Positions 670 to 58,292 of a DNA stretch of 64,000 nt are shown here, in pieces; the stretch's first letter is position 1; each line of letters begins with the position of its first letter. A model generated the notes under the pieces. That model saw nothing but the letters and a program-made list of their open reading frames with translations, ran no database searches and was not told the DNA's origin. Location: NCBI GenBank assembly GCA_963653425.1, contig CAVJWC010000004.1:21244-85243 (forward strand), read 5' to 3'. Position numbers and translations under genes: made by a program. The DNA is from Eubacterium sp. (GTDB lineage: Bacteria > Bacillota > Clostridia > Christensenellales > CAG-314).

Positions 670-740
670 GCCGTAAATTCGGAGAAATGTACCAAGCCGT
701 AAATCCGGACGCACACAATATTATACAAAACCTCATTCAA

Positions 741-774
741 GGCTCTTTCCGTTTTTCGGAAGGAGCCTTTTTTA
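741..774 (+). terminator. Intrinsic terminator of groEL
   Basis: Hairpin ggctctttcc / ggaaggagcc followed by TTTTTT. Confidence 0.7.
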
Positions 775-777
775 TAA

Positions 778-955
778 GCCTTCCATTCTTCATAACCGAT
801 TATTTTTACGGGAACAAATCGGTTTATCCGTCGTTAAACTCCTTTATGCGTATTTTCCCCTAAGTTAAATATATCTCATTTTCCCCTTACTTAATTTATA
901 TATCGCTTTGTCGTGACAACGGAAAACAGCGGAAGCCGATTTGTTCCGTTAAGCT
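778..955 (+). repeat. MITE-like dispersed element, variant copy (left end conserved, own internal long inverted repeat)
   Basis: The left end gccttccattcttcataaccgattatttttacgggaacaaatcggtt is almost identical to 16362-16410. An internal inverted repeat pairs acgggaacaaatcgg (808-822) with ccgatttgttccgt (936-949). The copy begins 4 nt after the terminator T-tract. Confidence 0.45.
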
Positions 956-1115
956 ATTTTTTGTTAAAATAATAAAAAATAGCTACGTACAGCATATTTT
1001 TATTTGTGAAATATGCCAAATAGGGACGTTTCGGAAGAGTAAAATACGATATGCAAAACTTCTATAAAGCGGACGTTTTCTCAGGGCGTTCGGAGGGGGT
1101 GGCGTAAGAATGATG

Positions 1116-1130
1116 TTGGCAATATGCCAA
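1116..1130. promoter_or_regulatory. Perfect 15-bp palindrome TTGGCAATATGCCAA (candidate operator)
   Basis: Dyad symmetry seen directly. The identical site is conserved upstream of the paralogue at 16824-16838. Confidence 0.4.
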
Positions 1131-1170
1131 GATAAAAACCTGTTATTAAGGGATTTCACTTGCTTATTGA

Positions 1171-1185
1171 TTGGCATTTTGCCAC
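1171..1185. promoter_or_regulatory. Second TGGCA-N3-TGCCA dyad (TTGGCATTTTGCCAC), candidate operator
   Basis: Its centre lies 55 bp from the first dyad. The same sequence and spacing occur at 16879-16893. Confidence 0.4.
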
Positions 1186-1244
1186 TATGTTGAACGGCTA
1201 ATATTGTATTGTAATTTCGCTTTAACTAAATTGCAAAAAAAATC

Positions 1245-1273
1245 TTGACACCATTCAAAATTGGTGCTATTAT
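1245..1273 (+). promoter_or_regulatory. Sigma-70-type promoter of the protease-LRR gene
   Basis: TTGACA (1245-1250), 17-bp spacer, TATTAT (1268-1273), with an A-tract just upstream. It is conserved at 16952-16980. Confidence 0.6.
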
Positions 1274-1352
1274 GTATTTATACAATGGGTGGCTGTTTAT
1301 TCTCTCTATAAAGTTGCCCCGTATAACAAACTCAACTGAGGAGGAAAACAAG

Positions 1353-4300
1353 ATGCAAAGAAAAAGCTTAATAGCTGTTTTGCTTGTCGCAATGGTATTA
1401 CTGCTCATATCGTGCAGTTCGCTTCAAATTGACAAGCCGAACGTTATCGACTCGGATAACACTTCTGCCCGCTTCTCGCGGTCTTTACTGAAAGCGGCGC
1501 AGTTCCTTAACGGCGGAACGTCCGAAACACAAACGGATACGTCCGCTCTTCCTTCTAAGGACGACGAAGTTTACGTTACCGTAAAACTCGGTAGCGGTAT
1601 CGTCGATTCTTATTTTAACAGCGGATTTACGAGCGTTGCGGACTACGCACTTTCCAAAGAAGGCGAAGCCATGATCAGCGACTTTACCGCTCAGCAGGAC
1701 TCGGTTATAGCTTTAATGAGAGACAAGAAGCTTACCACCGAAATCAAGCATCGTTACAACATTCTCCAGAACGGTTTCGCAGCTAAAATCAAATTCGGCG
1801 ACATCGAAACCGTAAAGGCTCTTCCGGGCGTAAAACAGGTCGTTCTCGCAGAAGAGTACTCCATTCCGGAAGTTTCTTCAAAAGCTTTGGCTGCTTCCTT
1901 TGCAGACACGGGTATTTTCAATAACCCCACGAATTACGCAGGAGCAGGAACGGTTATAGCTATTCTGGATACGGGTATCTATCCCGAACACAGCGCGTTT
2001 GCAACCGCACCTTCCGTCGAAGCCATTAACTACGAATACGTAGAGAAAATACTTTCCGTTACCAATGCGGGCGAAAGAGGCGCAACGGCAGAAACAGCTT
2101 ATTACAGCGCAAAGATTCCTTTCGCTTTCAACTACGCGGACGCTAACGAAATATATTATCCCGACTTTATGGACATCTTTGCAGGTCACTCGCACGGCAC
2201 GCACGTTGCGGGTATCGCGGCAGGTAACGACGACACCATAAAGGGCGCTGCCTGGGACGCTCAGCTCGCGGTTATGAGAGTATTCGGCGCGGCAAGTCAG
2301 GGCGCTAACGACGTCGACATTTACGCTGCCGTAGAAGACTGCGTGCTTCTCGGCGTTCAGGTTGCTAACCTTTCGCTCGGCAGTAACTGCGGTTTCGCTT
2401 ACGAAAAGGCAGAACAGAATCAGTTCGTAAACGACATAGTAGCTCTTGCAAGAAAAGCAGGTCTCACTATGTGTTGCGCAACGGGTAACGTCGGTACGGC
2501 TTGGTGGTATTCGGATACTTTGGCTTCGTTCTCCGCCGTTGACGATCCCGATAACGGCACCATAAGTTCTCCCGCATCCTACGACGGAACCTTCGCTGTA
2601 GGTTCCGCAAACAATCTCGTAAAAGTCTACATCGACTTCAACGGCACGAGAATGATCGGCAGAAACGGCGTTGCGGACTCCGAAACGAGCAGAGAAATCG
2701 ACTTCTTCGCTATTCTTGACGGCAAAGACGAAGCAACCTTCGAATACGTGGCAGTTCCCGGAACGGGCGCACCCGAAGATTACGACGGACTTGACGTTAA
2801 AGGTAAGATCGCTCTCGTTCAGAGAGGCGAACTCTCCTTTGCAGAAAAGGTTCAGAACGCAAAGGATAAAGGCGCGATAGCTTGTATTCTTTACGACAAC
2901 GTAGCCGAAACAATAGAAAAGTTCGGTGCGGTCGTAGGTGAAGACGCTATTCCCACCATGGCTATCACTCTTGAGGACGGCACCACGCTTGTTAACGCAC
3001 AGGACAAACGCATTACCGTTAACGCTTCCAACTATTTCGTAGACTATTCTTACTTCTCCTCGATGGGTGCTCTTAACGATCTTTCCATCGGCGTAGATAT
3101 TCTCGGTATAGGCGCAGGCGTTTACTCTGCGGTTCCCCAGTATTACGACTGGCTTCAGGGTACCAACGGTTACGACTACATGGACGGTACCTCCATGGCA
3201 ACCCCCAACGTTTCGGGCGTTATGGCTGTTCTTAAAGGATACCTTAAACAGACCTATCCGAATAAGACTCCCGCCGAAATCTCAGCGCTTGCTATGCAAC
3301 GTCTTATGAGTACGGCTATTCTTCTTGAAAATGCCGAAGGCAATCCCATCACCCCCAGAAGACAGGGTTCGGGTCTTGCAGACATCGAAAGAGCCATTGA
3401 AACCGACGCATATATTACGGTAACAGGCTCCGACAGAACAAAACTTAATTTGGGTAGCGACACCGAGAGAGACGGTATCTACACCCTTAACTTCAACGTA
3501 GTAAACGACGGCGAAAACGCTCTCGGTTATAAACTCAACGTACTTACTTTCACAGAATCCGCAGTAACCGGTAAATCCATAAACTACACCTTAAAGGGCG
3601 CGGATAAACTCATGATTGCCGAAAAAGCTTATATGCTTGACGGCGCAGAAGTTAAGTATTACGTGAACGGCACGCTTCTCGAAGGCGACGAAATCACCGT
3701 GGAAGCAGGCGAAAAACTCAAGATCAAAGCCGTTATCACTCTTACGGAAGAAAACAAAGCTTACATGAACGAAACCTTCCCCAACGGTATTTACGTTGAA
3801 GGTTTTGCCGTTCTCGAAAGCACCGACGAAGAAGGCATCGACCTTCACATTCCGTACATATCTTTCTACGGCGACTGGATGAATCTTCCCGCATACGAAC
3901 CCACGGCTTCCGACGGAGCAGTTCCGACTTGGGGTAACTACTTCGGTCTTGGTTTCACGGTTTGGGAAGACGCAGGCAACGGCTGGCTTATGGGACAGGA
4001 AATTCAGGCAGGCGTATATTCTTACAGCCTTCCCGAAGGATACAAAGCTCCTACGGCTAATGCAGACAAAGCCGCTATCGGCAGAGGCGTTGACGAAAAC
4101 GGATACTTCGACGGAACGGTAGTTCTCAACACTCTCAGCCTCGCTATCAAACGTAACGCTTCGGCTATTTACATCAATTACATCAAGACCGACGTTAACG
4201 AAAGCCTCGGTCAGGACGTTTTCTATAACATCGGTAAAGCTTGCATAGGCACTAACGCCGGATATTCGCTCACTTTCACCGGATTCTATCCCGAAGCGAT

Positions 4301-7300
4301 GATGCTCGCAAACAACGAAGAGATTCTCTTCAGCTTCACCTACGACTTCAACGATAAGCCCGTCGGTCAGGTTGTGAATATGCCCGTATTCGTAGACCTC
4401 GAAGCTCCCACCCTTGAAAAAGCTGCCTGGAGAACGGAAGAAGGCAGAACTTACCTCGATCTTACCGTTTACGACAACCATTACCTTCAGGCAACCGGTC
4501 TTCTTACCTACGGAACGGAAGACAGTTACAATAAACTCTACAAATACATGTTCCCGTGCTACGGCGACGTAAGAAACGGTAGCTACTCCTACTCGATAGA
4601 CGTTACCGACTATCTTGCAGACGTTGTAAATAACACCTTTGCCGTTCAGCTCGTGGACTACGCAAGAAACGCTTCCGTTTACGAAATCGAACTTCCCGGT
4701 AGCGGTGAAAACAACGCAAACGCAGTTATTACAGGCAACGAAAACCGCACTCTTGCAGTTAAATACCGCACCGACAACGTTGTGGTTTACTACGACGTAA
4801 ACGATCCTTCCTATACGGAAATCCGCACCAACTACAGCTACGACAGCACTAACGTAAACAACGCGGTCGTTAACTCCGAAAGCGGAGACGAATTCGTTAT
4901 CGAAAACGGCGTTCTTACGGCTTATAACGGCGAAGGCGGAGAAGTTATAGTTCCCGACGGCGTTACCGCAATCGGCGAATACGTCTTCAGTGGCGACAGC
5001 AGAATCACCAAGCTCGTTCTTCCCGAAGGTCTTAAGACTATAGGTGCATACTCTGTTATGAATCTTTATAACCTTACCGAGATCGTTCTTCCCAAGTCGC
5101 TCGAAAGACTGGAATACGGTTCTTTCAGTACTCTTCCCAAGATTACGTCTCTTGACCTCGAAAACACCGGTCTTAACTATGCGAACAACGCTCTCAACGG
5201 TATAACTTCGGTTAAGACGCTTACCTTCCCCAAGACGGATACTCCTCTTTCCATAAACTTCTCGCTGGCTGTATGGTATAATCTCGAAAAGGTTACCTTC
5301 CTCGGCGACATCGAGTCTATGACGGCTACCGTTATGTTCAACGACGCCATTAAAGAAGTTGAATTTATGGGTAACGTTAAGGCTATCGATCCCTCAGGCG
5401 GAGGTTTGACTTTATCTCTGACAACGTGCGATAAGCTCGAAAGAATAGTCTTCCGCGGCACCGTAGGACAACTCGGCGGCGTTCTGGTTGAGGATTGGGG
5501 CGACTTTATTTCCGTAGATTACAGTCAGTCTGCATCTTCTCTTATGAGTCTTAAAGAAGTTATCTTCGAAAAAGACGTAGAAACCATCGACGGTTTCGCA
5601 TTCGCAAACTGCCCGAAACTTACAAGCGTATCTTTCGGCGGAACTATCGGTTCTATCGGTAACGGAGCATTCGGCGGAAGCGACATGCTTTACGGCGGTT
5701 TCACCGTACTTGAAGGCAACGATAAGCTCGTTAAAGACGAAAACGGTATCGTTTACAACGCAGAAAAGACCGTTATGTATAAACCCTTTGCCTGGGACTA
5801 TGACGGTATACTCGAACTGCCCGAAACCATAACCGAACTTAACGAAAGAGAATTCTCCATTCCCGAAATGATTCCCGATTACTCCAAACCGGATTTCGGT
5901 ATCCGTTCCGAAGAAGAAGGCGGAGGCTTCTATTGGTCCATAAGCTCCATGTTCAGTTCTGCCGACTACTACAAGACGCTTCTTAAGGGCGTTAAACTCG
6001 GAAGTCAGATAAAGACTTTACCCGCATATTGCTTCTATCATAACTACAACTTCGCGGAAATCAACCTCGAGAACATCGAAGTATTCGAAACGCAGTCCCT
6101 TGCGGGAACGGCTATCACCAGCTTCAAAACAACCGAAAACACCAAGAAGATCGGCGCGGGCGTATGGATGGAATGCCGTAACCTCACCGAAATCGTTATC
6201 GGCGAAGACGTCGAAGTAGAATCCTATAGCGCTTTCTATTACGGCACAGGTTTCGTTGAAATCGAAGTTCCCGAATATATCACCGCAGACGTTCCTTATC
6301 TGTTCGCAGAGTGCGAAAAACTCGAAAAGGTAACCTTCCTCAACACCGATTCTCAGACGATAGGTAACGGTTCGTTCCACGGTACGATTTCTCTTAAAGA
6401 AATTATAGGTATTGACAACGTAACCGCTATCGGCGAGTACGCATTCATCCAGACGGGTCTTACTCATCTCGAACTCGAAAACGTAACGACTATCGCAGGT
6501 ACGGCGTTTACCAATGCAAGCAAACTCGAATCGGTTTACTTCCCGGCTCTCGAAACCATCGAATCGGTAATGAGTTGGAGCGGTGAAACCTACAGCGCGT
6601 TTGCATACTGCACGTCGCTTAAATCCTTCTACATCGGCGAAAACCTCGGTTACTTCGATCCCGTAGGAACGTTCGAAGGTTGCGAATCTCTCGAAGAAAT
6701 CAACGTTCACGAAAACAACGAATACTTTGCTTCGGTAGAAGGCGTACTCTTCAACAAAGCGGAAACCGAGCTTATTCTCTATCCCGCTTCCAGCACCGCA
6801 ACCGAACTCGAACTGCCCGACACCATCAAGGCGATTAACGCAGGAACGTTTATGGGCGCGCCCAACCTCGAAAAAGTAGTTATGCCCGCGGTCGAAACCA
6901 TCGGCGCAAACGCATTCGCTTACTCGGCGGTTAAGGAAGTTGTCGTAAGCGACGCTCTCGTCGAAATCGGCTTAGGCGCGTTCAGAAATACCGCTATAAG
7001 CGAGTTTGATCTTTCCGACGTACTCGTTATCGACGACAACGCGTTCTATGCAAGCAAACTTACCGAAGTTACCCTGAATAAGGCTGAATACCTTGGAATC
7101 AGAGCTTTCGGCTCGATCGAAACGCTCGAAAAAGTAACGCTCGGCGCGCTTGATGAATTCAACTTCTCCAGAGTATTCTTCGGTTCCACCAACATCTCTT
7201 CCGTAGAACTTAACGGCTGTGAAGTTCTCACCGAATTCGAAGACGGACTTTACAACGCAGACAAGACCGTTCTCTACAGATACTTCGGAACGGAAGCAAA

Positions 7301-7634
7301 CGTAACTCTTCCCGAAGGAATCGTTAAGATCGATTCTCACGCATTTGCAGGCAACAAGAACATCAAATCAGTAGTTCTTCCCGCAAGCCTCGGATATATC
7401 GCTGACGGCGTGTTCTACGGATGCACTGCTCTTACCGAAATCACCTTCAACTCCGAAAAGGCACCCGTTCTGCAGAACTATTACAGAGACGGCGTAAGAT
7501 ACCTCTATAACCAGTTCGTAAACGATCTCGAAGAAGCAAACGGAAACGAAGGCGTTAAGATTTATGTAAGCAATGACGCATCTTACAACACCTACATCTG
7601 GAGAACTTATTTCAAAAACATAATCGTAAAATAA
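1353..7634 (+). CDS. Giant surface lipoprotein: subtilisin-like S8 serine protease (propeptide-like region, PA insert) fused to a long BspA-type leucine-rich-repeat region, copy 1 (~2,093 aa)
   Basis: The start is taken as ATG 1353, with GAGGAGG at 1338-1344. The N-terminus MQRKSLIAVLLVAMVLLLISC is a signal peptide plus lipobox. Catalytic motifs are AILDTGI, HGTHVAG and GTSMATP. The PA-like insert reads GKIALVQRGELSFAEKVQNAKDKGA. The C-terminal ~1,100 aa contain recurrent LRR_5-like units (e.g. VIVPDGVTAIGEYVFSGDSRITKLVLPEGLKTIGAYS...). Confidence 0.85.
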   Translation: MQRKSLIAVLLVAMVLLLISCSSLQIDKPNVIDSDNTSARFSRSLLKAAQFLNGGTSETQTDTSALPSKDDEVYVTVKLGSGIVDSYFNSGFTSVADYALSKEGEAMISDFTAQQDSVIALMRDKKLTTEIKHRYNILQNGFAAKIKFGDIETVKALPGVKQVVLAEEYSIPEVSSKALAASFADTGIFNNPTNYAGAGTVIAILDTGIYPEHSAFATAPSVEAINYEYVEKILSVTNAGERGATAETAYYSAKIPFAFNYADANEIYYPDFMDIFAGHSHGTHVAGIAAGNDDTIKGAAWDAQLAVMRVFGAASQGANDVDIYAAVEDCVLLGVQVANLSLGSNCGFAYEKAEQNQFVNDIVALARKAGLTMCCATGNVGTAWWYSDTLASFSAVDDPDNGTISSPASYDGTFAVGSANNLVKVYIDFNGTRMIGRNGVADSETSREIDFFAILDGKDEATFEYVAVPGTGAPEDYDGLDVKGKIALVQRGELSFAEKVQNAKDKGAIACILYDNVAETIEKFGAVVGEDAIPTMAITLEDGTTLVNAQDKRITVNASNYFVDYSYFSSMGALNDLSIGVDILGIGAGVYSAVPQYYDWLQGTNGYDYMDGTSMATPNVSGVMAVLKGYLKQTYPNKTPAEISALAMQRLMSTAILLENAEGNPITPRRQGSGLADIERAIETDAYITVTGSDRTKLNLGSDTERDGIYTLNFNVVNDGENALGYKLNVLTFTESAVTGKSINYTLKGADKLMIAEKAYMLDGAEVKYYVNGTLLEGDEITVEAGEKLKIKAVITLTEENKAYMNETFPNGIYVEGFAVLESTDEEGIDLHIPYISFYGDWMNLPAYEPTASDGAVPTWGNYFGLGFTVWEDAGNGWLMGQEIQAGVYSYSLPEGYKAPTANADKAAIGRGVDENGYFDGTVVLNTLSLAIKRNASAIYINYIKTDVNESLGQDVFYNIGKACIGTNAGYSLTFTGFYPEAMMLANNEEILFSFTYDFNDKPVGQVVNMPVFVDLEAPTLEKAAWRTEEGRTYLDLTVYDNHYLQATGLLTYGTEDSYNKLYKYMFPCYGDVRNGSYSYSIDVTDYLADVVNNTFAVQLVDYARNASVYEIELPGSGENNANAVITGNENRTLAVKYRTDNVVVYYDVNDPSYTEIRTNYSYDSTNVNNAVVNSESGDEFVIENGVLTAYNGEGGEVIVPDGVTAIGEYVFSGDSRITKLVLPEGLKTIGAYSVMNLYNLTEIVLPKSLERLEYGSFSTLPKITSLDLENTGLNYANNALNGITSVKTLTFPKTDTPLSINFSLAVWYNLEKVTFLGDIESMTATVMFNDAIKEVEFMGNVKAIDPSGGGLTLSLTTCDKLERIVFRGTVGQLGGVLVEDWGDFISVDYSQSASSLMSLKEVIFEKDVETIDGFAFANCPKLTSVSFGGTIGSIGNGAFGGSDMLYGGFTVLEGNDKLVKDENGIVYNAEKTVMYKPFAWDYDGILELPETITELNEREFSIPEMIPDYSKPDFGIRSEEEGGGFYWSISSMFSSADYYKTLLKGVKLGSQIKTLPAYCFYHNYNFAEINLENIEVFETQSLAGTAITSFKTTENTKKIGAGVWMECRNLTEIVIGEDVEVESYSAFYYGTGFVEIEVPEYITADVPYLFAECEKLEKVTFLNTDSQTIGNGSFHGTISLKEIIGIDNVTAIGEYAFIQTGLTHLELENVTTIAGTAFTNASKLESVYFPALETIESVMSWSGETYSAFAYCTSLKSFYIGENLGYFDPVGTFEGCESLEEINVHENNEYFASVEGVLFNKAETELILYPASSTATELELPDTIKAINAGTFMGAPNLEKVVMPAVETIGANAFAYSAVKEVVVSDALVEIGLGAFRNTAISEFDLSDVLVIDDNAFYASKLTEVTLNKAEYLGIRAFGSIETLEKVTLGALDEFNFSRVFFGSTNISSVELNGCEVLTEFEDGLYNADKTVLYRYFGTEANVTLPEGIVKIDSHAFAGNKNIKSVVLPASLGYIADGVFYGCTALTEITFNSEKAPVLQNYYRDGVRYLYNQFVNDLEEANGNEGVKIYVSNDASYNTYIWRTYFKNIIVK

Positions 7635-7728
7635 GCGATTTAATTAAAACCAAATCGTAAAACAAGCGATTAAGCAACAACAACCAATCGTAAAAGCGAT
7701 TAAATAGCCAATCGCAAAACAAACGATT
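7622..7728 (+). repeat. Four imperfect copies of AATCG-N6-9-CGATT (aatcgtaaaa..agcgatt), starting on the last codons and stop of the protease gene
   Basis: Units lie at 7622-7640, 7653-7671, 7686-7701 and 7710-7728. A homologous array with five units lies at 23342-23474. Confidence 0.6.
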
Positions 7729-7747
7729 AAACAAGCCGAAAGGCGAA

Positions 7748-7774
7748 GGCTCCGCATTTGCGGAGCCTTTTTTA
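7748..7774 (+). terminator. Intrinsic terminator
   Basis: ggctccgc-attt-gcggagcc followed by TTTTTT. An identical copy lies at 23494-23520. Confidence 0.8.
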
Positions 7775-7957
7775 TGAGGAAATACATTTATTGCAACTGT
7801 TGACAGAAATTCGTTTATTGAAATCGTTTATCGTAAAATACGGCTATTAAAACTATATATCCGTGCGGTCAGGTGAAGAAAGTTATCGTTGTTTTTGCGT
7901 AATTCCATATAAATTAAGCGCAAAAAGCAAGCTTTTCGAAAAACGAGGTTTTTATCG

Positions 7958-16303: not shown

Positions 16304-16327
16304 AATTTTACTGCAATTATACTACAG

Positions 16328-16358
16328 CCCGCATTCAAAAAAGAGTGCGGGTTTTTTT
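16328..16358 (+). terminator. Intrinsic terminator after hydA
   Basis: cccgca...tgcggg hairpin followed by TTTTTTT. Confidence 0.8.
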
Positions 16359-16361
16359 ATT

Positions 16362-16584
16362 GCCTTCCATTCTTCATAACCGATTATTTTTACGGGAACA
16401 AATCGGTTCAGACTGTGTTAAACTCTCTCATACATACCCAAGTACGCCCTCAGCCCAAAGCCTTGTCTGAGCCAAGCCCGCAAGGGGCGTGTTTCTATCT
16501 TAAAAACGCTACGCGCCGTAAAGGAAGCTTTTTTTAAGAACAAAAAAATCCGTTTACGTTCATCGGTGATAAAGAATGTAATGC
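16362..16584 (+). mobile_element. Complete ~223-bp MITE-like element with imperfect terminal inverted repeats
   Basis: Left end GCCTTCCATTCTTCATAACCGAT versus the reverse complement of the right end GCATTACATTCTTTATCACCGAT (19/23). It has no coding capacity, and it contains an internal terminator-like hairpin followed by a T-run. It starts 3 nt after the hydA terminator T-tract. Confidence 0.55.
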
Positions 16585-16617
16585 TAAGCTTTCTATTCAA
16601 CACAAAACCTCATTCAA

Positions 16618-16652
16618 GGCTCTTTCCGTTTTTCGGAAGGACCTTCTTATTT
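16618..16652 (+). terminator. Relic copy of the groEL terminator (part of the segmental duplication)
   Basis: aaaacctcattcaaggctctttccgtttttcggaagga(c)c matches 728-767 with a slightly damaged stem. No gene precedes it. Confidence 0.5.
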
Positions 16653-16823
16653 TTATAAAAACATTAGCGATAACGAACGGAGTAACGGACTCAGATAACT
16701 TGTTTCCGTTTGCGGAAGGAGTAAATTCGCGAGTGGGGGAGCGGGAAAAAACAAATATACAAAATTTCTACAAAAACGGGTGTTTTTTAATGGTTTTCGG
16801 ATGGATTGGGCGTAAGAATGATG

Positions 16824-16838
16824 TTGGCAATATGCCAA
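16824..16838. promoter_or_regulatory. Palindrome TTGGCAATATGCCAA (copy 2)
   Basis: Identical to 1116-1130. Confidence 0.4.
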
Positions 16839-16878
16839 GATAAAAGCCTGTTATTAAGGGATTTTGTTCTATTACTGA

Positions 16879-16893
16879 TTGGCATTTTGCCAC
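16879..16893. promoter_or_regulatory. Dyad TTGGCATTTTGCCAC (copy 2)
   Basis: Identical to 1171-1185, with the same 55-bp centre-to-centre spacing. Confidence 0.4.
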
Positions 16894-16951
16894 TATATTG
16901 AGATGTTATTTTTGTATTGTAATTTCGCTTTAACTAAATTACAAAAAAATC

Positions 16952-16980
16952 TTGACACCATTCAAAATCGGTGCTATTAT
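16952..16980 (+). promoter_or_regulatory. Sigma-70-type promoter of protease-LRR paralogue 2
   Basis: TTGACA, 17-bp spacer, TATTAT, as at 1245-1273. Confidence 0.6.
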
Positions 16981-17063
16981 GTATTTGTATAATGGGTGTT
17001 TGTTTCGTTCTCTCCGTGCAATTATCCGTTTACAACACCAACCCACTGAGGAGGAAAAACAAG

Positions 17064-20000
17064 ATGCAAAGAAAAAGCTTGATAGCTGTTTTGCTTGTCG
17101 CAATGGTATTACTGCTCATATCGTGCAGTTCGCTTCAACTTGACAAGCCGAACGTTATCGATTCAAGTAACACAACAGCCCGCTTCTCTCGGTCTTTACT
17201 GAAAGCGGCGCAGTTCCTTAACGGCGGAACTTCCGAAACCGAATCGGATTCTTCCACCCTCCCCGCTAAAGACGACGAAGTTTACGTTACCGTAAAACTC
17301 GGTAGCGGTATCGTTGATTCTTACTTCGGTAGCGGATTTACGAGCGTTGCGGACTACGCACTTTCCAAAGAAGGCGAAGCCATGATCAGCGACTTTACCG
17401 CTCAGCAGGACTCGGTTATAGCTTTAATGAGAGACAAGAAGCTTACCACCGAAATCAAGCATCGTTACAACATTCTCCAGAACGGTTTCGCAGCTAAAAT
17501 CAAATTCGGCGACATCGAAACCGTAAAGGCTCTTCCGGGCGTAAAACAGGTCGTTCTCGCAGAAGAGTACTCCATTCCGGAAGTTTCTTCAAAAGCTTTG
17601 GCTGCTTCCTTTGCAGACACGGGTATTTTCAATAACCCCACGAATTACGCAGGAGCAGGAACGGTTATAGCTATTCTGGATACCGGTATTTATGCGGACC
17701 ATAGCGCATTTGCTACCGCTCCTTCCGTCGAAGCCATTAACTACGAATACGTAGAGAAAATACTTTCCGTAACCAATGCCGGCGCAGTAGGCGCAACGGC
17801 AGAAACAGCTTATTACAGCGCAAAAATCCCCTTCGCATTCAACTATGCGGACGGTAACGAAAGATTCCAGCCCGGTTATTCCGACATGAGCGTAGGTCAC
17901 GAACACGGCACTCACGTTGCGGGTATCGCGGCAGGTAACGACGACACTATAAAGGGTGCTGCCTGGGACGCTCAGCTCGCGGTTATGAGAGTATTCGGCG
18001 CAGGCAAGCAGGGCGCTAACGATACCGACATCTACGCGGCTGTAGAAGACTGCGTGATTCTCGGCGTTCAGGTTGCTAACCTTTCGCTCGGCAGTACGTG
18101 CGGTTTTGCTTACGAAAAGGCAGAACAGAATCAGTTCGTAAACGACATCGTTAACCTTGCAAGAAAAGCAGGTCTCACTATGTGTTGCGCAACGGGTAAC
18201 GTAGGTACGGCTTGGTGGGATTCGGATACTTTGGCTCCGTTCTCCGCCGTTGACGATCCCGATAACGGCACGGTAAGTTCGCCCGCTTCTTTCCCCAGCA
18301 CGTTTGCAGTAGGTTCCGCAAACAACCTCGTGAAGATTTACGTAAACTTCGAAGGTTCGAGAATAATCGGCAGAAACGGCGTTGTAGACTCCGAAACGAG
18401 CAAGGAAATCAACTTCTTCGCTATTCTTGACGGCAAAGACGAAGCGACCTTCGAATACGTTGCAGTTCCCGGCGCGGGCGCACCCGAAGATTACGACGGA
18501 CTTGACGTTACGGGTAAGATCGCTCTCGTTCAGAGAGGAGAAATCTCCTTTGCCGAAAAGGTTCAGAACGCAAAGGATAAAGGCGCGATAGCTTGTATTC
18601 TTTACGATAACGTAACCGAAAAGATTGAAAAATTCGGCGCGGTCGTAGGCGAAAACACTATTCCCACCATGACAATTACTCTTGAAGACGGCACCACGCT
18701 TGCCAATGCTCAGGACAAACGTATCACGATCGGCTCTTCCGACTATTTCGTGGAATACTCGTATTTCTCTTCGATGGGCGCTCTTAACGACCTTTCCATC
18801 GGCGTAGACATTCTCGGTATAGGCGCTGGCGTTTACTCCGCGGTTCCTCAGTACTATGACTGGCAGTTCGGAACAAACGGTTACACCTACATGGACGGTA
18901 CTTCCATGGCAACCCCCAACGTCGCAGGCGTTATGGCGGCTCTTAAAGGATACCTCAAACAGGCTTATCCCACCAAGACTCCTGCCGAAATCTCCAATCT
19001 CGCTATGCAACGTCTTATGAGCACGGCTACTATTCTCGAAAACTCCGACGGCAACCCCATCACCCCCAGAAGACAGGGTTCGGGTCTTGCAGACATCGAA
19101 AGAGCCATTGAAACCGACGCTTACATAACGGTAACCGGTTCGGACAGAACCAAACTCAACCTCGGTAGCGACACCGAAAAAGACGGTATTTATACGCTTA
19201 ACTTCAACGTTGTGAACGACGGCGAAAACGCTCTCGGTTATAAACTTAACGTACTTACCTTCACCGAATCCGCAGTAACCGGTAAATCCATAAACTACAC
19301 CTTAAAGGGCGCGGATAAACTCATGATTGCCGAAAAAGCTTATATGCTTGACGGCGCAGAAGTTAAGTATTACGTGAACGGCACGCTTCTCGAAGGCGAC
19401 GAAATCACCGTGGAAGCAGGCGAAAAACTCAAGATCAAAGCCGTTATCACTCTTACGGAAGAAAACAAAGCTTACATGAACGAAACCTTCCCCAACGGTA
19501 TTTACGTTGAAGGCTTTGCGGTTCTCGAAAGCACGGACGAAGAAGGCATCGACCTTCACATTCCGTACATATCTTTCTACGGCGATTGGATGACTCTTCC
19601 CGCATACGAACCCACGGCTTCCGACGGCACGGCTTCGACTTTCGGAAAATACTTCGGTCTTACGTTTATGTCCTATGAAGACGCAGGCAACGGCTGGTTC
19701 GTCGGACAGGAAATTCAGGCAGGCGTATATTCTTACACTCTTCCCGAAGGATACAAAGCTCCTACGGCTAATGCAGACAAAGCCGCTATCGGCAGAGGCG
19801 TTGACGACAACGGTTCTTTGGACGGAACGGTAATACTTAAAGCTATTAACCTTGCTATTAAGCGTAACGCTTCCTCGGTTTATCTCAGTTATACGAAGGT
19901 CGGCACCGGTGAAAGTCTCGGCAACGACGTTTTCTATAACATCGGTAAGGCTTGCGCAGGCACTAACGGCGGATATTCGCTCACTTTTAACGAATTCTAT

Positions 20001-23000
20001 CCCGAAACGCTGATGCTCGCAAACAACGAACAGCTTCTTTTCAGCTTTACCTACGACTTTAACGATAAGCCCGTCGGTCAGGTTGTTGATATGCCCGTAT
20101 TTATCGACCTCGAAGCTCCCACCCTTGAAAAAGCTTCCTGGAGAACGGAAGACGGCAGAACTTACCTCGACCTTACCGTTTACGACAACCATTACCTTCA
20201 GGCAACCGGTCTTCTTACCTACGGAACGGAAGACAGCTATAACAGCCTTTACAAATTCATGTTCCCGTGTTACGGCGACGTAAGAAACGGAGATTACTCC
20301 TACTCGATAGACGTTACCGATTATATGGCTAACGTTGTAAACGACACCTTTGCGGTTCAGCTCGTTGACTATGCAAGAAACGTTTCCGTTTACGAAATCG
20401 AACTTCCCGATAGCGGTGAAAACAACGCAAACGCTGTTATTACAGGCAACGAAAACCGTACTCTTGCGGTAAGATACCGTACCGACGACGCCGTAATTTA
20501 CTACGACGTAAACGATCCTTCCTATACGGAAGTTCACACTTACAGCAGTTTTGACAGCTCCAAGGCAAACAATGCCGTCGTTAACTCCGAAAGCGAAGGA
20601 ACGGACGAATTCGTTATCGAAAACGGCGTTCTTAAAGCTTACAACGGCGAAGGCGGAGAAGTTGTAATTCCCGACGGAGTTACCTCTATAGGCGCATACG
20701 TTTTCAACGGCGACAGCAGAATCACAAAACTCGTTCTTCCCGAAGGTCTTAAATCGATAGGTTATTATTCTATCAGAAATCTTTATCACCTCACCGAGAT
20801 CGTTCTTCCCAAGTCGCTCGAAAGAATGGAATATTATTCCTTCTGTACTCTTCCCTTGCTGACTTCTCTCGATCTTGAAAATACCAGCCTTAACTACGCG
20901 GCTTTCGCACTCAACGGTATAGCCGGCGTTAAGACTCTTACCTTCCCCAAGACGGAAACTCCGCTTACTCTTAACTTCACCTTGGACGTATGTTATAACC
21001 TCGAAAAGGTTACTTTCCTCGGCGACGTGGCGTCTATACATTCAAGCTTTATGTTCAACGATTCTCTTAAAGAAATCGAATTCATGGGCAACGTTACCTC
21101 TCTCGAAGGCGTAAGAGCAGGTATGGCTTTGTCGTTAACCGGTTGCGACGTTCTCGAAAGAATAGTATTCCACGGCAACGTAGACAAACTCGGCTACTGC
21201 ATAGTTCAGGATTACGGCGACTACGTTTACAAAGATTACAGTCAGGCAGCGTCCGCTCTTATCGGTCTTAAAGAAGTTATCTTCGAAAAAGACGTAGGAA
21301 GTATCGACGGTATATCCTTCTCCGGTTGCCCGAAACTTGAAAACGTAGCTTTCGGCGGAAACGTCGGCTACATAGGTAGCGGAGCATTCGGTGGAAGCGA
21401 CATGCTTTACGGCGGTTTCACCGTACTTGAAGGCAACGACAAGCTTATTAAAGACGAAACGGGTATCGTTTACAACGCAGACAAGACCGCTATGTTCAAG
21501 CCTTCGGCTTGGGATTACGACGGCGTACTCGAACTGCCCGAAACCATTACCGAACTTAACGAAAGAGAATTCTCCATTCCCGAATTCGTTCCCGAATACG
21601 TTAAACAGGATTACGGTATCTATCCCGAAGGAGAAAACGGCGGCGGTTATTACTGGAACCTCAACTCTATGTTCGGAAATCCCGACTACGACAAGACCCT
21701 CCTTAAAGGCGTTAAACTCGGAAGTCAGATAAAGACTTTACCCGCATATTGCTTCTACAGAAACTACAACCTTGCGGAAATCAACCTCGAAAACGTCGAA
21801 GTATTCAAAACGCAGTCCCTTTCGGGAACGGCTATAACAAGCTTCAGAACAACCGAAAACACCAAGAAGATCGGCGCGGGCGTTTGGAAAGGTTGCCGTA
21901 ACCTCACCGAAATCGTTATAGGCGAAAACGTTGAAGTGGAAACCTACGAAGAATTCTATTCCGGCACAGGTTTCGTTGAAATCGAAGTTCCCGAATATAT
22001 CACCGCAGACGCGGCTTACCTGTTCGCAGCCTGCAAGAACCTCGAAAAGGTAACCTTCCTTAATACCGGTTCTCAGAATATAGGTTCGGGCGCTTTCAGC
22101 GGTACGACTTCTCTTAAAGAAATCATAGGTATCGACAACGTAACCGCTATCGGCGAGTACGCATTCAATCTTTCGGGTATCACTCACCTCGAACTCGAAA
22201 ACGTAAAGAGTATATCCGGTCCTGCGTTCTACCATGCGGAGAAGATCGAATCCGTTTACTTCCCTGCTCTCGAAACCGTTGAACCGATATACGATTGGGA
22301 CGGCGAACTCTACAACGCGTTTGCATACTGCACGTCGCTTAAATCCTTCTACATCGGCGAAAACTGCGGTTACTTCAATCCTGTAGGAATGTTCGAAGGT
22401 TGCGACGCTCTCGAAGAAATCGTCGTTCACGAGAACAACCGTGTATTCTCTTCTATAGAAGGCATACTCTTCAACAAGGCAGAAACGGCTATTCTTCTCT
22501 ATCCGACGGCAAGCACCGCAACCGAACTCGAACTGCCCGACACCATCAAGGCGATTAACGCAGGAACGTTTATGGGCGCGCCCAACCTCGAAAAAGTAGT
22601 TATGCCCGCGGTCGAAACCATCGGCGCAAACGCATTCGCTTACTCGGCGGTTAAGGAAGTTGTCGTAAGCGACGCTCTCGTCGAAATCGGCTTAGGCGCG
22701 TTCAGAAATACCGCTATAAGCGAGTTTGATCTTTCCGACGTACTCGTTATCGACGACGACGCTTTCTATGCGACCAAGCTCACCGAAGTTACCGTAAACA
22801 AAGCGGAATACCTCGGAAACAAAGCTTTCGGCGCAATTGAAACGCTCGAAAAGGTAACTATCGGCGGAGTAGATGAATTCAACTTCTCCAGAGTATTCTT
22901 CGGTTCCACCAACATCTCTTCCGTTGAACTTAACGGCTGTGAAGTTCTCACCGAATTCGAAGACGGACTCTATAACGCAGACAAGACCGTTCTCTACAGA

Positions 23001-23354
23001 TACTTCGGAACGGAAGCAAACGTAACTCTTCCCGAAGGAATCGTTAAGATCGATTCTCACGCATTTGCAGGCAACACGACCGTTAAGAACGTAGTTCTTC
23101 CCGCAAGTCTCGGATATATCGCTGACGGCGCGTTCTACGGATGTACTGCTCTTACCGAAATCACCTTCAAATCCGAAAAAGCACCCGTTCTTCAGAACTA
23201 TTACAGAGACGGCGTAAGATACCTCTATAACCAGTTTGTAAACGATCTCGAAGAAGCTGACGGAAACGAAGACGTTAAGATTTACGTAAGCGGTGACGCA
23301 TCTTACAACACCTACATCTGGAGAACTTACTTCAAAAACATAATCGTAAAATAA
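17064..23354 (+). CDS. Giant S8 protease / BspA-type LRR lipoprotein, copy 2 (~2,096 aa)
   Basis: ATG 17064 with GAGGAGG upstream. It has the same lipobox N-terminus and the motifs AILDTGI, HGTHVAG and GTSMATP. It is collinear with copy 1 but diverges mainly in the catalytic-domain loops and the central LRRs. Confidence 0.85.
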   Translation: MQRKSLIAVLLVAMVLLLISCSSLQLDKPNVIDSSNTTARFSRSLLKAAQFLNGGTSETESDSSTLPAKDDEVYVTVKLGSGIVDSYFGSGFTSVADYALSKEGEAMISDFTAQQDSVIALMRDKKLTTEIKHRYNILQNGFAAKIKFGDIETVKALPGVKQVVLAEEYSIPEVSSKALAASFADTGIFNNPTNYAGAGTVIAILDTGIYADHSAFATAPSVEAINYEYVEKILSVTNAGAVGATAETAYYSAKIPFAFNYADGNERFQPGYSDMSVGHEHGTHVAGIAAGNDDTIKGAAWDAQLAVMRVFGAGKQGANDTDIYAAVEDCVILGVQVANLSLGSTCGFAYEKAEQNQFVNDIVNLARKAGLTMCCATGNVGTAWWDSDTLAPFSAVDDPDNGTVSSPASFPSTFAVGSANNLVKIYVNFEGSRIIGRNGVVDSETSKEINFFAILDGKDEATFEYVAVPGAGAPEDYDGLDVTGKIALVQRGEISFAEKVQNAKDKGAIACILYDNVTEKIEKFGAVVGENTIPTMTITLEDGTTLANAQDKRITIGSSDYFVEYSYFSSMGALNDLSIGVDILGIGAGVYSAVPQYYDWQFGTNGYTYMDGTSMATPNVAGVMAALKGYLKQAYPTKTPAEISNLAMQRLMSTATILENSDGNPITPRRQGSGLADIERAIETDAYITVTGSDRTKLNLGSDTEKDGIYTLNFNVVNDGENALGYKLNVLTFTESAVTGKSINYTLKGADKLMIAEKAYMLDGAEVKYYVNGTLLEGDEITVEAGEKLKIKAVITLTEENKAYMNETFPNGIYVEGFAVLESTDEEGIDLHIPYISFYGDWMTLPAYEPTASDGTASTFGKYFGLTFMSYEDAGNGWFVGQEIQAGVYSYTLPEGYKAPTANADKAAIGRGVDDNGSLDGTVILKAINLAIKRNASSVYLSYTKVGTGESLGNDVFYNIGKACAGTNGGYSLTFNEFYPETLMLANNEQLLFSFTYDFNDKPVGQVVDMPVFIDLEAPTLEKASWRTEDGRTYLDLTVYDNHYLQATGLLTYGTEDSYNSLYKFMFPCYGDVRNGDYSYSIDVTDYMANVVNDTFAVQLVDYARNVSVYEIELPDSGENNANAVITGNENRTLAVRYRTDDAVIYYDVNDPSYTEVHTYSSFDSSKANNAVVNSESEGTDEFVIENGVLKAYNGEGGEVVIPDGVTSIGAYVFNGDSRITKLVLPEGLKSIGYYSIRNLYHLTEIVLPKSLERMEYYSFCTLPLLTSLDLENTSLNYAAFALNGIAGVKTLTFPKTETPLTLNFTLDVCYNLEKVTFLGDVASIHSSFMFNDSLKEIEFMGNVTSLEGVRAGMALSLTGCDVLERIVFHGNVDKLGYCIVQDYGDYVYKDYSQAASALIGLKEVIFEKDVGSIDGISFSGCPKLENVAFGGNVGYIGSGAFGGSDMLYGGFTVLEGNDKLIKDETGIVYNADKTAMFKPSAWDYDGVLELPETITELNEREFSIPEFVPEYVKQDYGIYPEGENGGGYYWNLNSMFGNPDYDKTLLKGVKLGSQIKTLPAYCFYRNYNLAEINLENVEVFKTQSLSGTAITSFRTTENTKKIGAGVWKGCRNLTEIVIGENVEVETYEEFYSGTGFVEIEVPEYITADAAYLFAACKNLEKVTFLNTGSQNIGSGAFSGTTSLKEIIGIDNVTAIGEYAFNLSGITHLELENVKSISGPAFYHAEKIESVYFPALETVEPIYDWDGELYNAFAYCTSLKSFYIGENCGYFNPVGMFEGCDALEEIVVHENNRVFSSIEGILFNKAETAILLYPTASTATELELPDTIKAINAGTFMGAPNLEKVVMPAVETIGANAFAYSAVKEVVVSDALVEIGLGAFRNTAISEFDLSDVLVIDDDAFYATKLTEVTVNKAEYLGNKAFGAIETLEKVTIGGVDEFNFSRVFFGSTNISSVELNGCEVLTEFEDGLYNADKTVLYRYFGTEANVTLPEGIVKIDSHAFAGNTTVKNVVLPASLGYIADGAFYGCTALTEITFKSEKAPVLQNYYRDGVRYLYNQFVNDLEEADGNEDVKIYVSGDASYNTYIWRTYFKNIIVK

Positions 23355-23474
23355 GCGATTAAATAGCTAATCGTAAAATAAGCGATTAAGTAACAACAAC
23401 CAATCGTAAAAGCGATTACACAGCAACAACCAATCGTAAAAGCGATTAAATAGCTAATCGCAAAACAAACGATT
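23342..23474 (+). repeat. Five imperfect copies of AATCG-N6-9-CGATT overlapping the stop codon of paralogue 2
   Basis: Units start at 23342, 23369, 23402, 23432 and 23456. Confidence 0.6.
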
Positions 23475-23493
23475 AAACAAGCCGAAAGGCGAA

Positions 23494-23520
23494 GGCTCCG
23501 CATTTGCGGAGCCTTTTTTA
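23494..23520 (+). terminator. Intrinsic terminator
   Basis: ggctccgc-attt-gcggagcc followed by TTTTTT. Confidence 0.8.
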
Positions 23521-23683
23521 TGAGGAAATTCGTATTAAGAAGAAAATTCGCCTTAGCGTTAAGCGGAAATACGCCTTGAATTGAATACGATTGCCCTTCC
23601 TTGCGCATAGTTTATATATTGCATAGCTTTTATATCGCAGTGTCACGGCATAAAAAGTTAAAGAAAGCGGTGGGCGTTCTTTC

Positions 23684-35964: not shown

Positions 35965-36335
35965 CCCTAAAAAACAGGCGATTTCGGTAACTTCAAAATA
36001 AAAAACGAAACTACTCGGTAAATTTGAGATAAAAACAAAGATATTCGGGAATTTTAAGCGACATAAAAGAATGCTTGGTAATTTGAGATAAAAAACAGAG
36101 ACATTCTGTAACTTGAGATAAAAAACAAAGATATTCTGTAACTTTGAGAGACATAAAAACAAGAATATCAGGCAAACTTTGAGATAAAACCGGAGACATT
36201 CGGTAACTGCAAGATAAAAAGCAAGAATGCTTGGTAATTTGGGACAAAAACGAAGATATTCGGTAAATTAAGATAAAAACAGAGACGTTTATCACCCTTC
36301 GATATAAAAACAAAGACGTTTATCAATCTTCAATA
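35965..36335. repeat. Degenerate ~30-bp minisatellite, ~12 units (gagataaaaacaaagatattcggtaattt)
   Basis: Anchor motif spacing is 31,30,30,30,30,34,31,31,29,29,31 bp. Each unit contains an A5-6 tract. Confidence 0.7.
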
Positions 36336-36378: not shown

Positions 36379-36452
36379 GGTACTCCCGACGGGAATCGAA
36401 CCCATAACTAACCCTTAGGAGGGGTTTATTATATCCATTTAACTACGGAAGC
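36378..36452 (-). tRNA. tRNA-Arg (anticodon CCT), CCA encoded
   Basis: The reverse complement GCTTCCGTAGTTAAATGGATATAATAAACCCCTCCTAAGGGTTAGTTATGGGTTCGATTCCCGTCGGGAGTACCA folds by hand into a cloverleaf. The anticodon loop is CTCCTAA and the T-loop is TTCGATT. Confidence 0.85.
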
Positions 36453-38746: not shown

Positions 38747-38761
38747 AATACCGTTTTTTGT

Positions 38762-39537: not shown

Positions 39538-39695
39538 TCCGTCTTTTTCGTTCCGTTAAGCTTTTACGGAGCAAAAAACGAAGAAAAAGTTGTGGCGTTC
39601 CGTTTTTTACAAAGCTCTTCGCGCCGTAAAGGAAGTCTTTTCTTAAGTAACCGCAAAATTCGTTTTACGGTTATCGGCGATAAAGAAGGTCGCGC
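39538..39695 (+). repeat. Diverged, shorter copy of the MITE-like element
   Basis: The right half ...ctcttcgcgccgtaaaggaagtctttt...cgttttacggttatcggcgataaagaaggtcgcgc matches the right halves of 16362-16584 and the 53.4-kb array. It follows a small hairpin followed by a T-run (39520-39537). Confidence 0.4.
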
Positions 39696-40397: not shown

Positions 40398-40424
40398 CCG
40401 TCTGCGTCAATCCGTAACCAATTT

Positions 40425-43967: not shown

Positions 43968-44069
43968 ATATGAATTTATTGTTTTACGCGTAATCTTCTT
44001 CGTTTTGTCGTTTTACGCTAATCGGCGATAAAGAATGTAATGCGTAATCTTCGTTTTGTCGTTTTATGC

Positions 44070-51210: not shown

Positions 51211-51275
51211 GCATTCAATTCGTTTTCACCGATATTTTTACTTGAATAAATCGGTTTAGAGTGCGTTAAACGACC
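51211..51275 (+). repeat. Left-end fragment of the MITE-like element
   Basis: gcattcaattcgttttcaccgatatttttacttgaataaatcggtttagagtgcgttaaac parallels the left ends at 778, 16362 and 53428. It starts 2 nt after the terminator T-tract. Confidence 0.4.
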
Positions 51276-51462
51276 TTTTCCGTACCGTTAATCTTTCCTG
51301 CAAAGAAAATCGGATGGATTTGCGTTTCTTACTTGCATTTTGTAAATAAATAGTGTATAATAATTACACGCGACAAAAATTTTTATGAATTCACTTTTGT
51401 TTTCGGACGAAAGGGCAAAAGTCTTCGTCTTTATAGATGAGAACAAAACGAGGTGAATTGCT

Positions 51463-53427: not shown

Positions 53428-54098
53428 GCTTCATTCGTTATCACTAATTATTTTTACGGGAATAAATCGGTTTAGCCTTCGTTAAACTCCTTCGCACGTA
53501 CACGCAGTACGCTCTCGGTCGTTTGCCTCGGCTAAACTAAACCCTTGAGGGCGATTTCTTCTTCGTAAAAACGCTTCGCGCCGTAAAAGGAAGCTTTTTT
53601 CTCTCAAAGAGCAAAAATTCCGTTTACGTTAATTATTGATAACGAATGTCGCTCGTCGCTCCGTTCGTACACTATTTGTGGGAATAAATCGGTTTAGCCT
53701 TCGTTAAACTCCTTCGCACGTACACGCAGTACGCTCTCGGTCGTTTGCCTCGGCTAAACTAAACCCTTGAGGGCGATTTCTTCTTCGTAAAAACGCTTCG
53801 CGCCGTAAAAGGAAGCTTTTTTCTCTCAAAGAGCAAAAATTCCGTTTACGTTAATTATTGATAACGAATGTCGCTCGTCGCTCCGTTCGTACACTATTTG
53901 TGGGAATAAATCGGTTTAGCCTTCGTTAAACTCCTTCGCACGTACACGCAGTACGCTCTCGGTCGTTTGCCTCGGCTAAACTAAACCCTTGAGGGCGATT
54001 TCTTCTTCGTAAAAACGCTTCGCGCCGTAAAAGGAAGCTTTTTTCTCTCAAAGAGCAAAAATTCCGTTTACGTTAATTATTGATAACGAATGTCGCTC
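53428..54098 (+). repeat. Three head-to-tail copies of the ~222-bp MITE-like element (period exactly 222 bp; internal copies identical by eye)
   Basis: The motif aataaatcggtttagcc recurs at 53461, 53683 and 53905. Unit ends are CATTCGTTATCACTAAT and ATTATTGATAACGAATG (16/17 inverted match). Confidence 0.9.
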
Positions 54099-58072: not shown

Positions 58073-58292
58073 ACAGGTATAGACTTTACGGGAAAAATAT
58101 AAATAACAAAGCAAGCCGAGGCTACGGAAAGAGATAAAAAACAAAGCAAGCCGAAGCTATAAAAAAGAGATAAAATCAACGCAAATGCGGATTTCCCGGG
58201 TAATAAACTAAAAAAACAAACGCAAGTATTACGTTCTTTATAACCGATTACCGCAGTAACCGCTTTTAATTCACCGAAAAACAAACGCAATA

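Follow-up and report, generated by a model that had tools for sequence, protein, structure and literature searches.

An apparently undescribed family of small, structure-constrained intergenic repeats, probably MITE-like, in gut Clostridia

IS630 is the family of insertion sequences that duplicates TA on insertion, and RUP is a small non-coding intergenic MITE with terminal inverted repeats and TA flanks, which is present in tens of copies and has spread in lineage bursts. Elements derived from IS200/IS605 have separate subterminal hairpins and no inverted termini, and go with a Y1 transposase (TnpA) and often with TnpB. The ERIC/IRU repeats of Enterobacteria are imperfect palindromic intergenic sequences in which paired changes preserve the stems, probably at the RNA level; ERIC sequences are simple rods of ~127 nt that are largely inherited vertically and rarely insert. 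For the Correia elements of Neisseria (CREE/NEMIS) we know of no cognate transposase. Correia elements consist of ~26-bp inverted repeats around a conserved core, measure 69–151 bp and are mostly intergenic (PMC5039591), and they can affect the expression of neighbouring genes and are substrates of RNase III (PMC2649163). Among REPINs, lone halves look like remnants of decay, and some copies are situated at the ends of operons, where they may have been recruited as terminators (PMC3337134). Group IIC introns typically lie just downstream of a terminator stem-loop followed by T's, or of other inverted repeats, and are oriented like the upstream gene (PMC1702495).

Here we describe a repeat family that shares features with several of these systems. 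It came to attention in a 64-kb stretch of contig C4 (the window; contig coordinate = window position + 21243) of a metagenome bin of 1.56 Mb on 35 contigs, estimated to be 95% complete, through one copy at positions 16362–16584 that lies behind the hydA gene. The features of this locus are as follows:

16326..16358, plus strand: intrinsic terminator of hydA, stem-loop and T-run, host DNA outside the element (terminator scan)
16359..16587 including 3-nt flanks, plus strand: complete, worn copy of the element, subfamily 'a' (nhmmer profile 1–218)
16362–16384 and 16562–16584, plus strand: arms of the terminal stem of this copy (fold)
16588..16598, plus strand: left-end-like 11-mer GCTTTCTATTC, 3 nt past the right end of the copy

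The stem of the hydA terminator occupies positions 16326–16353 and the copy starts 3–4 nt past the T-run. The letters quoted for this copy in a preliminary description of the DNA proved correct on re-reading, and direct reading agreed with its terminal inverted repeats, the ends GCCTTCCATTCTTCATAACCGAT and ATCGGTGATAAAGAATGTAATGC being complementary at 19 of 23 positions. The internal terminator attributed to the copy (cttcgcgccgtaaaggaag) is the sequence of other copies; the copy itself has ctacgcgccgtaaaggaag, a hairpin that the terminator scan did not call a terminator, and no promoter or IHF site was identified in it. The element is 215–235 nt long and contains no transposase-sized open reading frame. 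A covariance model of the family (R1, see below) matched the copy with 187 bits over model positions 1–227. When compared with shuffled sequences, the copy folded weakly (z = -1.9 as RNA and -1.5 as DNA) and a well-kept copy of the family strongly (z = -7.4, none of 200 shuffles being as good), indicating that the copy behind hydA is a worn member. The 11-mer beyond its right end is a leftover of a stacked second copy or of a partial tandem repeat. The family as a whole is real, non-coding, dispersed and structure-constrained; it is apparently undescribed, its presence differs between congeners, and it has undergone bursts elsewhere, with a sister subfamily of 281–295 nt living in other gut Clostridia. 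The stretch behind hydA is probably one copy, old and no longer active, of a MITE-like, non-autonomous element whose landing sites are TA dinucleotides in T/A-rich DNA, with terminator T-tracts followed by A among its favoured harmless sites.

Full copies have the conserved termini (R)GCRTTCCRTTC and GAAYGGAAYGC(Y), which run on into a terminal stem of 22–27 bp, the inner part of which varies between copies (TTTATAAATAATTA, GCTCTCACTAATA and GCGTAAGCGATTG, each with a matching partner) yet stays complementary. Folds of single sequences concurred in a terminal stem that closes a three-way junction, the further parts of which are a long arm (ATTTTTACGGGAAYAAATCG paired with CGATTTCTTCCGCGTAAAAA), a tiny CGC-NNN-GCG hairpin and a variable right arm; in a second subfamily, which includes the copy behind hydA, the long arm uses a G-U-rich alternative partner. 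When a plain MAFFT alignment was folded with RNAalifold, indels in the arms left hardly any consensus, and a ribosum-weighted fold followed by a covariance-model alignment was used instead. In an alignment of 29 sequences, 84.4% of the cells were paired, compared with ~42% when the partners were slid, and 30 of the 73 pairs changed on both sides, including 14 of the 22 pairs of the terminal stem, so that the compensatory stem changes reported in the preliminary description are real. Covariance model R1 was built from this alignment. In the R1 alignment (21 copies from this genome, G014, G041, G053, G065, G078, G083 and two metagenome contigs), 88.4% of the cells were paired (40–45% when slid) and both sides changed in 50 of the 73 pairs, including 13 of the 17 pairs of helix 2 and all 3 of the small hairpin, figures that lean toward structure because the alignment was fitted to the model. 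All major helices covary, both within this genome and in other genomes. When weighted by genome, the core was better conserved (1.27 bits per column) than the two terminal arms (1.01 and 0.80 bits), with 40 of 121 core columns reaching at least 1.6 bits; the best-conserved words were ATTTTT, TAAAC, TTCGGTC, TTGCCT and AAAAA.

Conservation of this kind bears on two alternatives to a MITE-like element. In the first, the family would be an RNA module serving the host, the fold acting in read-through or leader transcripts as a reserve terminator, as a stabiliser of 3' ends or as a substrate of RNase III, and mobility having been merely the original means of spread. We consider this quite improbable. 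It agrees with the covariation of all helices, with the conservation of the unpaired core motifs (the first four of the words listed above), with the presence in some copies of a plus-strand hairpin followed by T6, and with precedents for such co-option among the Correia elements and the REP doublets (PMC2649163, PMC3337134), but the copy behind hydA has no detected promoter and an internal hairpin that is not terminator-like, and Rfam 15 gave no family over the element at the gathering threshold and only unrelated weak matches at E values up to 10. In the second, the element would be directed by its structure, with folded single-stranded DNA being excised and inserted at the replication fork, into one strand and directly on the 3' side of a DNA hairpin, which could be a terminator or another copy with its stem closed; adjacency to terminators would then be true targeting, the right-hand TA would belong to the element, and the process, carried out by an as yet unrecognised enzyme, would resemble that of REPINs or IS200/IS605 or the way in which group IIC introns home to terminators. 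This is possible, though doubtful. Covariation of the whole fold, with the arms of the terminal stem changing together from copy to copy, is in line with it, as are two pairs of helix 3 that are G-U in most sequences (34 versus 2) and, as G-T or G-U pairs, fit the plus strand only. These two pairs alone favour the plus strand; in the terminal stem, wobble pairs are balanced between the strands (41 G-U versus 38 A-C) and carry no strand signal, which counts against such a route, as does the fact that the ends are true inverted repeats that pair mutually and not separate subterminal hairpins.

A genome-wide search with the unit, as the preliminary description had called for, yielded 55 pieces by BLASTN and 96 with an iterated nhmmer profile, the latter distributed over 29 of the 35 contigs. 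Among the 96 pieces were 30 full-length copies, ~37 lone left ends and ~27 right-hand fragments; the lone left ends stop between profile positions 41 and 125 and mostly have no matching right end inside 450 nt. Most copies in this genome are broken, and a few internally deleted mini-forms of 67–115 nt were also found. Decay into lone ends parallels the REP singlets (PMC3337134), a point in favour of single-strand transposition, and the broken state of most copies argues against a function for the host. The copies are all intergenic or nearly so, and make up 0.71% of the genome and 4.6% of its intergenic DNA; many of them lie at contig ends. Their median pairwise identity is 65%, that between nearest neighbours 76% and the maximum 84%, values by which the copies in this genome can be judged old.

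Besides the copy behind hydA, the window contains the following pieces:

778..852 (nhmmer 782–852), plus strand: lone left end, profile 1–71, directly behind the groEL terminator
39557..39690, plus strand: right-hand fragment, profile 93–214, within a ~300-nt block of repeat debris
44009..44042, plus strand: lone right terminal repeat, profile 185–218, downstream of trkH
51211..51288 (nhmmer 51218–51288), plus strand: lone left end, profile 4–75, 2 nt past the T-run of the rplL terminator
53428..54098 (nhmmer 53431–54093), plus strand: three head-to-tail units of 222 nt
58229..58280 (C4:79523–79472), minus strand: right-end fragment, profile 167–216, found by nhmmer and absent from the preliminary description

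The profile thus recovered every related copy reported previously (at 778, 39538, ~43975, 51211 and 53428). The statement that left ends in the window sit behind terminators holds for the four true left ends (778, 16362, 51211 and 53428) and does not extend to 39557 and 44009, which are right-hand fragments without a profile-matched left end. In the array at 53428, unit 2 is identical to unit 3, and both have a left arm that is shorter than, and different from, that of unit 1, and close strains have one, two or three units at this site; the array is a head-to-tail stack whose last unit was later duplicated. The debris block around 39557 sits between a conserved promoter and its gene, a location that would suit an RNA-level role. 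The first 57 nt of the copy at 778 are identical to those of the copy at 16362, and these two copies adjoin the two arms of a 7-kb segmental duplication. Such a situation is what one would expect if the similarity were due to local or segmental duplication in the window, an explanation that, like chance, has practically no probability: the family is represented on 29 of the 35 contigs, seven other genomes and 46 metagenome contigs contain it as well, and a control pattern read backwards gave 0 matches in genome G041, compared with 40 for the real end. The genome-wide census refutes both, and the family is a dispersed mobile repeat, as had been proposed.

Empty sites, which had been suggested as a check, were found in a genome of the same genus, G001, which has no copy by BLAST or covariance model and is syntenic with window positions 38500–58400 at 68–91% identity. 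After rplL, the terminator is kept in G001 and the sequences then diverge, the element being missing; at the site corresponding to 53428, the same terminator runs straight into the same promoter; at that of 39557, the 300-nt debris block is absent between the conserved promoter and the start codon; and after hydA, the terminator is followed by the next operon, with neither the element nor the 7-kb duplication, which marks the latter as peculiar to the present lineage. That a congener manages copy-free at the same operon ends argues against a module on which the host relies. Close strains of the species share all insertions of the window and differ only in the number of tandem units, and one insertion of the sister subfamily was fixed in all 10 places read, of 87 indexed. 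Copies were found in 5 of 82 genomes of the same taxonomic family, namely the present one, G078 (14 copies), G083 (9), G065 (3) and G014 (1); another family of the same order gave one partial match, and an even sample of the class (149 genomes) contained no genome with copies. A pattern scan led to G041, another Clostridia genome, which has 26 copies, twelve of them 91–97% identical to each other (mean 94%) and others 95–99% identical to a reference copy; its relative G053 has at least 18 copies. The core pattern was present on the 46 metagenome contigs mentioned above, mostly from the human gut and often at contig ends; the element was not found in IMG/VR or in phage and plasmid collections. 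The distribution of the family is therefore very patchy, with near-identical bursts in some lineages.

The recent copies of the sister subfamily in G041 (n = 12, 294 nt) have crisp ends, TA-GGGATTCC...GGAATCCC-TA, with the TA at the right end in all 12 copies and that at the left end in 9 of them. When 62 distinct ends of this subfamily from G041, G053 and metagenome contigs were considered, the flanking bases were T in 55 and A in 58, and the next base outward of the TA was W in about three quarters; in the present genome the flank consensus is weaker (left T-W, right T-R). A target-site duplication was sought, as had been advised, but no copy-specific duplication of 2–4 nt exceeded the permutation expectation at any offset among the copies of this genome, and no filled/empty pair was found between close strains. 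TA is self-complementary and could be part of the repeat itself. Taken together, the TA flanks and the lack of a copy-specific duplication make TA clear as the target and leave its duplication not proven, and the invariant right and less constant left TA of G041 would also fit a TA target plus an element-borne TA. The lack of copy-specific duplication and this asymmetry between the two ends both fit an element that is inserted as a single strand.

The preliminary description held that the element always follows an intrinsic terminator, from which terminator-directed targeting had been proposed. Genome-wide, only 17 of 62 left ends (27%) lie 0–9 nt past the T-run of a hairpin terminator, as judged by a detector that missed at least the 53428 case, as do 3 of 53 right ends (6%) and 4.35% of 4000 random intergenic positions. 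The link to terminators in this genome is thus real, about six-fold above chance and specific to left ends, and it is not universal: the remaining 73% of the left ends are elsewhere, and the recently active sister subfamily (62 ends) shows a TA/W-rich target only, without a left-end-specific link to terminators. A preference for terminator-proximal positions therefore stands, and with it part of the case for insertion just 3' of hairpins, against which the behaviour of the sister subfamily speaks. Copies also lie behind copies. The 11-mer of the left end follows 11 of 53 right ends (21%) at a distance of at most 7 nt, compared with 1.3% of random intergenic positions, which shows that copies stack head to tail with a joint of 2–4 nt, again as expected if a closed stem can serve as the hairpin behind which a single strand inserts.

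The strongest placement signal is the strand. Among copies that bear a left end, the plus strand coincides with the G-rich (leading) strand in a ratio of 45:6, which was stable over windows of 10–60 kb and over thresholds and rose to 38:1 where the skew is strong; right-hand fragments show no strand bias (15:11). When the upstream gene is oriented against the G-rich strand, the copy follows the strand in 15 cases and the gene in 3. In G041 the ratio is 14:6. The counts of 45:6, 15:3 and 14:6 agree with transposition through one replication strand, but many DDE families of Firmicutes are also biased with respect to the replication strand (PMC3971601), and the bias is therefore no proof of a single-strand route. 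Genes lie on the G-rich strand in 80.6% of cases, and if 88% of the copies keep to this strand and 81% of the genes lie on it, one would expect a ratio of ~73:27 for the adjacency of left and right ends to T-runs, near the observed 17:3, so that the specificity of left ends for terminators needs no separate cause. With neighbour orientations taken from a codon-usage-scored gene call, full copies are co-oriented with the downstream gene in 24:5 and with the upstream gene in 21:9, in line with an RNA module. However, the recent copies of G041 have no orientation bias with respect to neighbouring genes, which argues against a transcript-bound function, and the roughly one quarter of copies that start behind an efficient-looking terminator should seldom be transcribed. 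The strand-following of 45:6, the head-to-tail stacking and the better conservation of the core than of the termini are new in this analysis.

A cognate transposase was sought, as the preliminary description had recommended, and its view of the element as non-autonomous agrees with the outcome: Y1, IS630-type DDE_3, IS4/IS5 DDE, IS110, rve, reverse transcriptase, TnpB and Y2 (the last searched for without a positive control) are all absent from this genome, and none of these eight families is common to the element-rich genomes. Y1 (PF01797) is absent from this genome (G000), G001, G014, G041 and G053, with controls matched, and reverse transcriptase (PF00078) from this genome, G053, G078 and G083. 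That no Y1 or Y2 HUH enzyme, reverse transcriptase or IS110 enzyme turned up in the element-rich genomes searched tells against a single-strand route, and the failure to find an autonomous partner with the ends of the element counts against the MITE-like reading; the absence of enzymes weighs little in either direction, because insertion sequences are often lost from metagenome bins such as these genomes. Neither in G041 nor in the metagenome loci is a gene enclosed by a pair of ends. Several candidates were rejected: the additional ends of G041 proved to be truncated and solitary, pairs of ends at odd distances were spurious, and the genes between facing ends in this genome code for housekeeping functions (a hydrolase, a small HTH protein and SpoIVA). 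Most IS630-like genes of G041 are internal-deletion derivatives on small contigs; the termini of these IS630-like genes are unrelated to those of the element, and such genes are absent from this genome and G053 (G078 and G083 were outside that search). An IS481-like rve gene beside one G041 copy shares no ends with the element.

On the MITE-like reading that we prefer, an enzyme encoded elsewhere and gone from this genome would insert the element at TA where the DNA is rich in T and A. Among such sites, the commonest harmless one would be the T-tract of an intrinsic terminator with an A after it, and this, together with a strong preference for one strand, would put the left end directly behind terminators about one time in four. 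That the whole fold is conserved suggests that a single-stranded form matters, either as a transposition intermediate or as read-through RNA, and in this genome the family would now be breaking down into lone ends and short arrays. The covariation of all helices, the better-conserved core, the strand bias and the stacking behind closed stems are not accounted for by a plain double-strand cut-and-paste MITE. These features, as well as the absence of a transposase, would be explained if a folded single strand integrated on one replication strand just 3' of a hairpin, by means of a hijacked host enzyme or of one that belongs to none of the families searched (HUH, DDE, IS110 and reverse transcriptase). 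We think this unlikely; if true, hairpin-directed integration of a single strand would be a new route of transposition.

Small structured repeats of this kind make up several percent of the intergenic DNA in uncultured gut Clostridia and are missing from repeat and RNA catalogues; they break assemblies and mislead the annotation of terminators, leaders and small RNAs. The present family is a clean case, in which the whole fold is constrained and orientation follows the chromosome strand, and covariance model R1 can be used to mask and count it in gut metagenomes. If the fold reflects a single-stranded stage of transposition with an enzyme yet to be recognised, the family hints at an unrecognised system of mobilisation; if it reflects tolerance or use at the RNA level, the family would be a Firmicutes counterpart of the Correia and ERIC elements.

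When compared with the known systems, the element resembles RUP and the MITEs of IS630-Tc1-mariner in being small, non-coding, dispersed in intergenic DNA and bounded by terminal inverted repeats, and RUP-type MITEs in particular in the TA on both sides (sister subfamily), the tens of copies per genome and the lineage-specific bursts. It differs from RUP-type MITEs in that no IS630 element with matching ends was found, that duplication of the TA is not proven and that the whole element, not only its ends, is constrained by its fold, and it is strongly strand-biased, whereas IS630 has no such bias in Firmicutes (PMC3971601). With the Correia elements it shares inverted repeats around a conserved core and the occurrence of full-length and internally deleted forms; however, it occurs in another phylum, is ~220–295 nt long, forms a three-way junction and not a rod, and has arms that covary. 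The likeness is one of architecture only, and no promoter or IHF site was identified in the element. REPINs and their RAYT are similar in their complementary ends and long hairpin, with a spacer that varies but keeps the fold, and in lone halves that look like decay remnants; in contrast to REPINs, the arms of our element are not short palindromes, its termini look like classical inverted repeats with TA flanks, and this genome, G041 and G053 contain no RAYT/Y1 gene. Like group IIC introns, about a quarter of the left ends lie behind terminators and copies are stacked behind copies, but kinship with group II introns, which the preliminary description had considered, finds no support, since no reverse transcriptase was found and the element, at ~220 nt and without ribozyme domains, is too small, and no intron RNA family was detected in the window. 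A relationship with IS200/IS605, suggested in the same place, fares no better: inverted termini are present that pair mutually, subterminal hairpins are absent, and neither a Y1 nor a TnpB gene was found. As in ERIC, stems are kept by paired changes, but there is no relation in sequence or host. Because defining features of these systems were looked for without success (a parent IS, a RAYT, a reverse transcriptase or ribozyme), we place it among the small structured intergenic mobile repeats. By analogy, its nearest counterparts would be the Correia elements and TA-flanked MITEs such as RUP in architecture, the REPINs in fold behaviour and decay into lone ends, and the group IIC introns in adjacency to terminators. 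As a kind of element it is fairly ordinary; its conserved whole fold, its strand bias and its missing enzyme set it apart.

The 7-kb direct segmental duplication beside the flagged element has its left junction at the site of that element, and it carries a giant gene (2127 aa), both copies of which contain arrays of a short repeat at the 3' end:

window 726-7786, copy 1 of the 7-kb direct duplication
window 16602-23531, copy 2 of the 7-kb direct duplication
window 7606-7730 and 23326-23476, 3'-end arrays, repeat of ~27-37 nt with core AATCGTAAAATAAGCGATTAA

A relic of the groEL terminator (window 16604-16652) follows the flagged element. Behind the terminator, a left-end fragment of the element is retained in copy 1 of the duplication and a right-end-like fragment, GCGATAACGAACGGAGTAACGG, in copy 2. 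In G001, a genome of the same genus, the hydA terminator is directly followed by the TM1266-type regulator operon, showing that the duplication is specific to the lineage of the window's genome.

Other short repeats were found in the window. Downstream of trkH lie two short tandem arrays, the unit numbers of which differ between close strains, GCA_963637745.1 having one unit fewer in each; direct repeats were also found immediately upstream of a tRNA gene, and a 32-nt word recurs further along:

window 43685-43890, array A (units of ~24 nt, gctgagagcaaacgtcgggctgaa) and array B (units of 25 nt, ctacagagtttagtaactctttg)
window 35998-36329, 5-6 direct repeats of 60-90 nt, core AATTTGAGATAAAAACAAAGATATTCGG
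window 36381-36452, minus strand, tRNA gene
window 59888-60138, four occurrences of the 32-nt word, spaced ~70-80 nt, core AAAGTAGGCAAAAAACTTTCACCG

Copies of the element were located at contig ends in the window's genome (contigs C30, C33 and C34) and in many metagenome contigs (L061, L067, L070, L074, L075, L077, L091 and L099). The family is therefore a frequent source of assembly breaks in these bins, and the element copy numbers are thus lower bounds.

In G041, the Clostridia genome with a recent burst of the 294-nt sister element, an intact rve-type (IS481-like) transposase gene (337 aa; locus L119, G041:C5:65645-68968) is situated ~300 nt from one copy of this element, and no ends common to the two were seen at this locus. 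The same genome contains an IS630-like insertion sequence whose transposase frame is split (contigs C19, C20, C22, C39 and C41, loci L050-L056), together with several internal-deletion derivatives of ~380 nt each, which constitute a second MITE-forming family in G041, unrelated to the 294-nt element.
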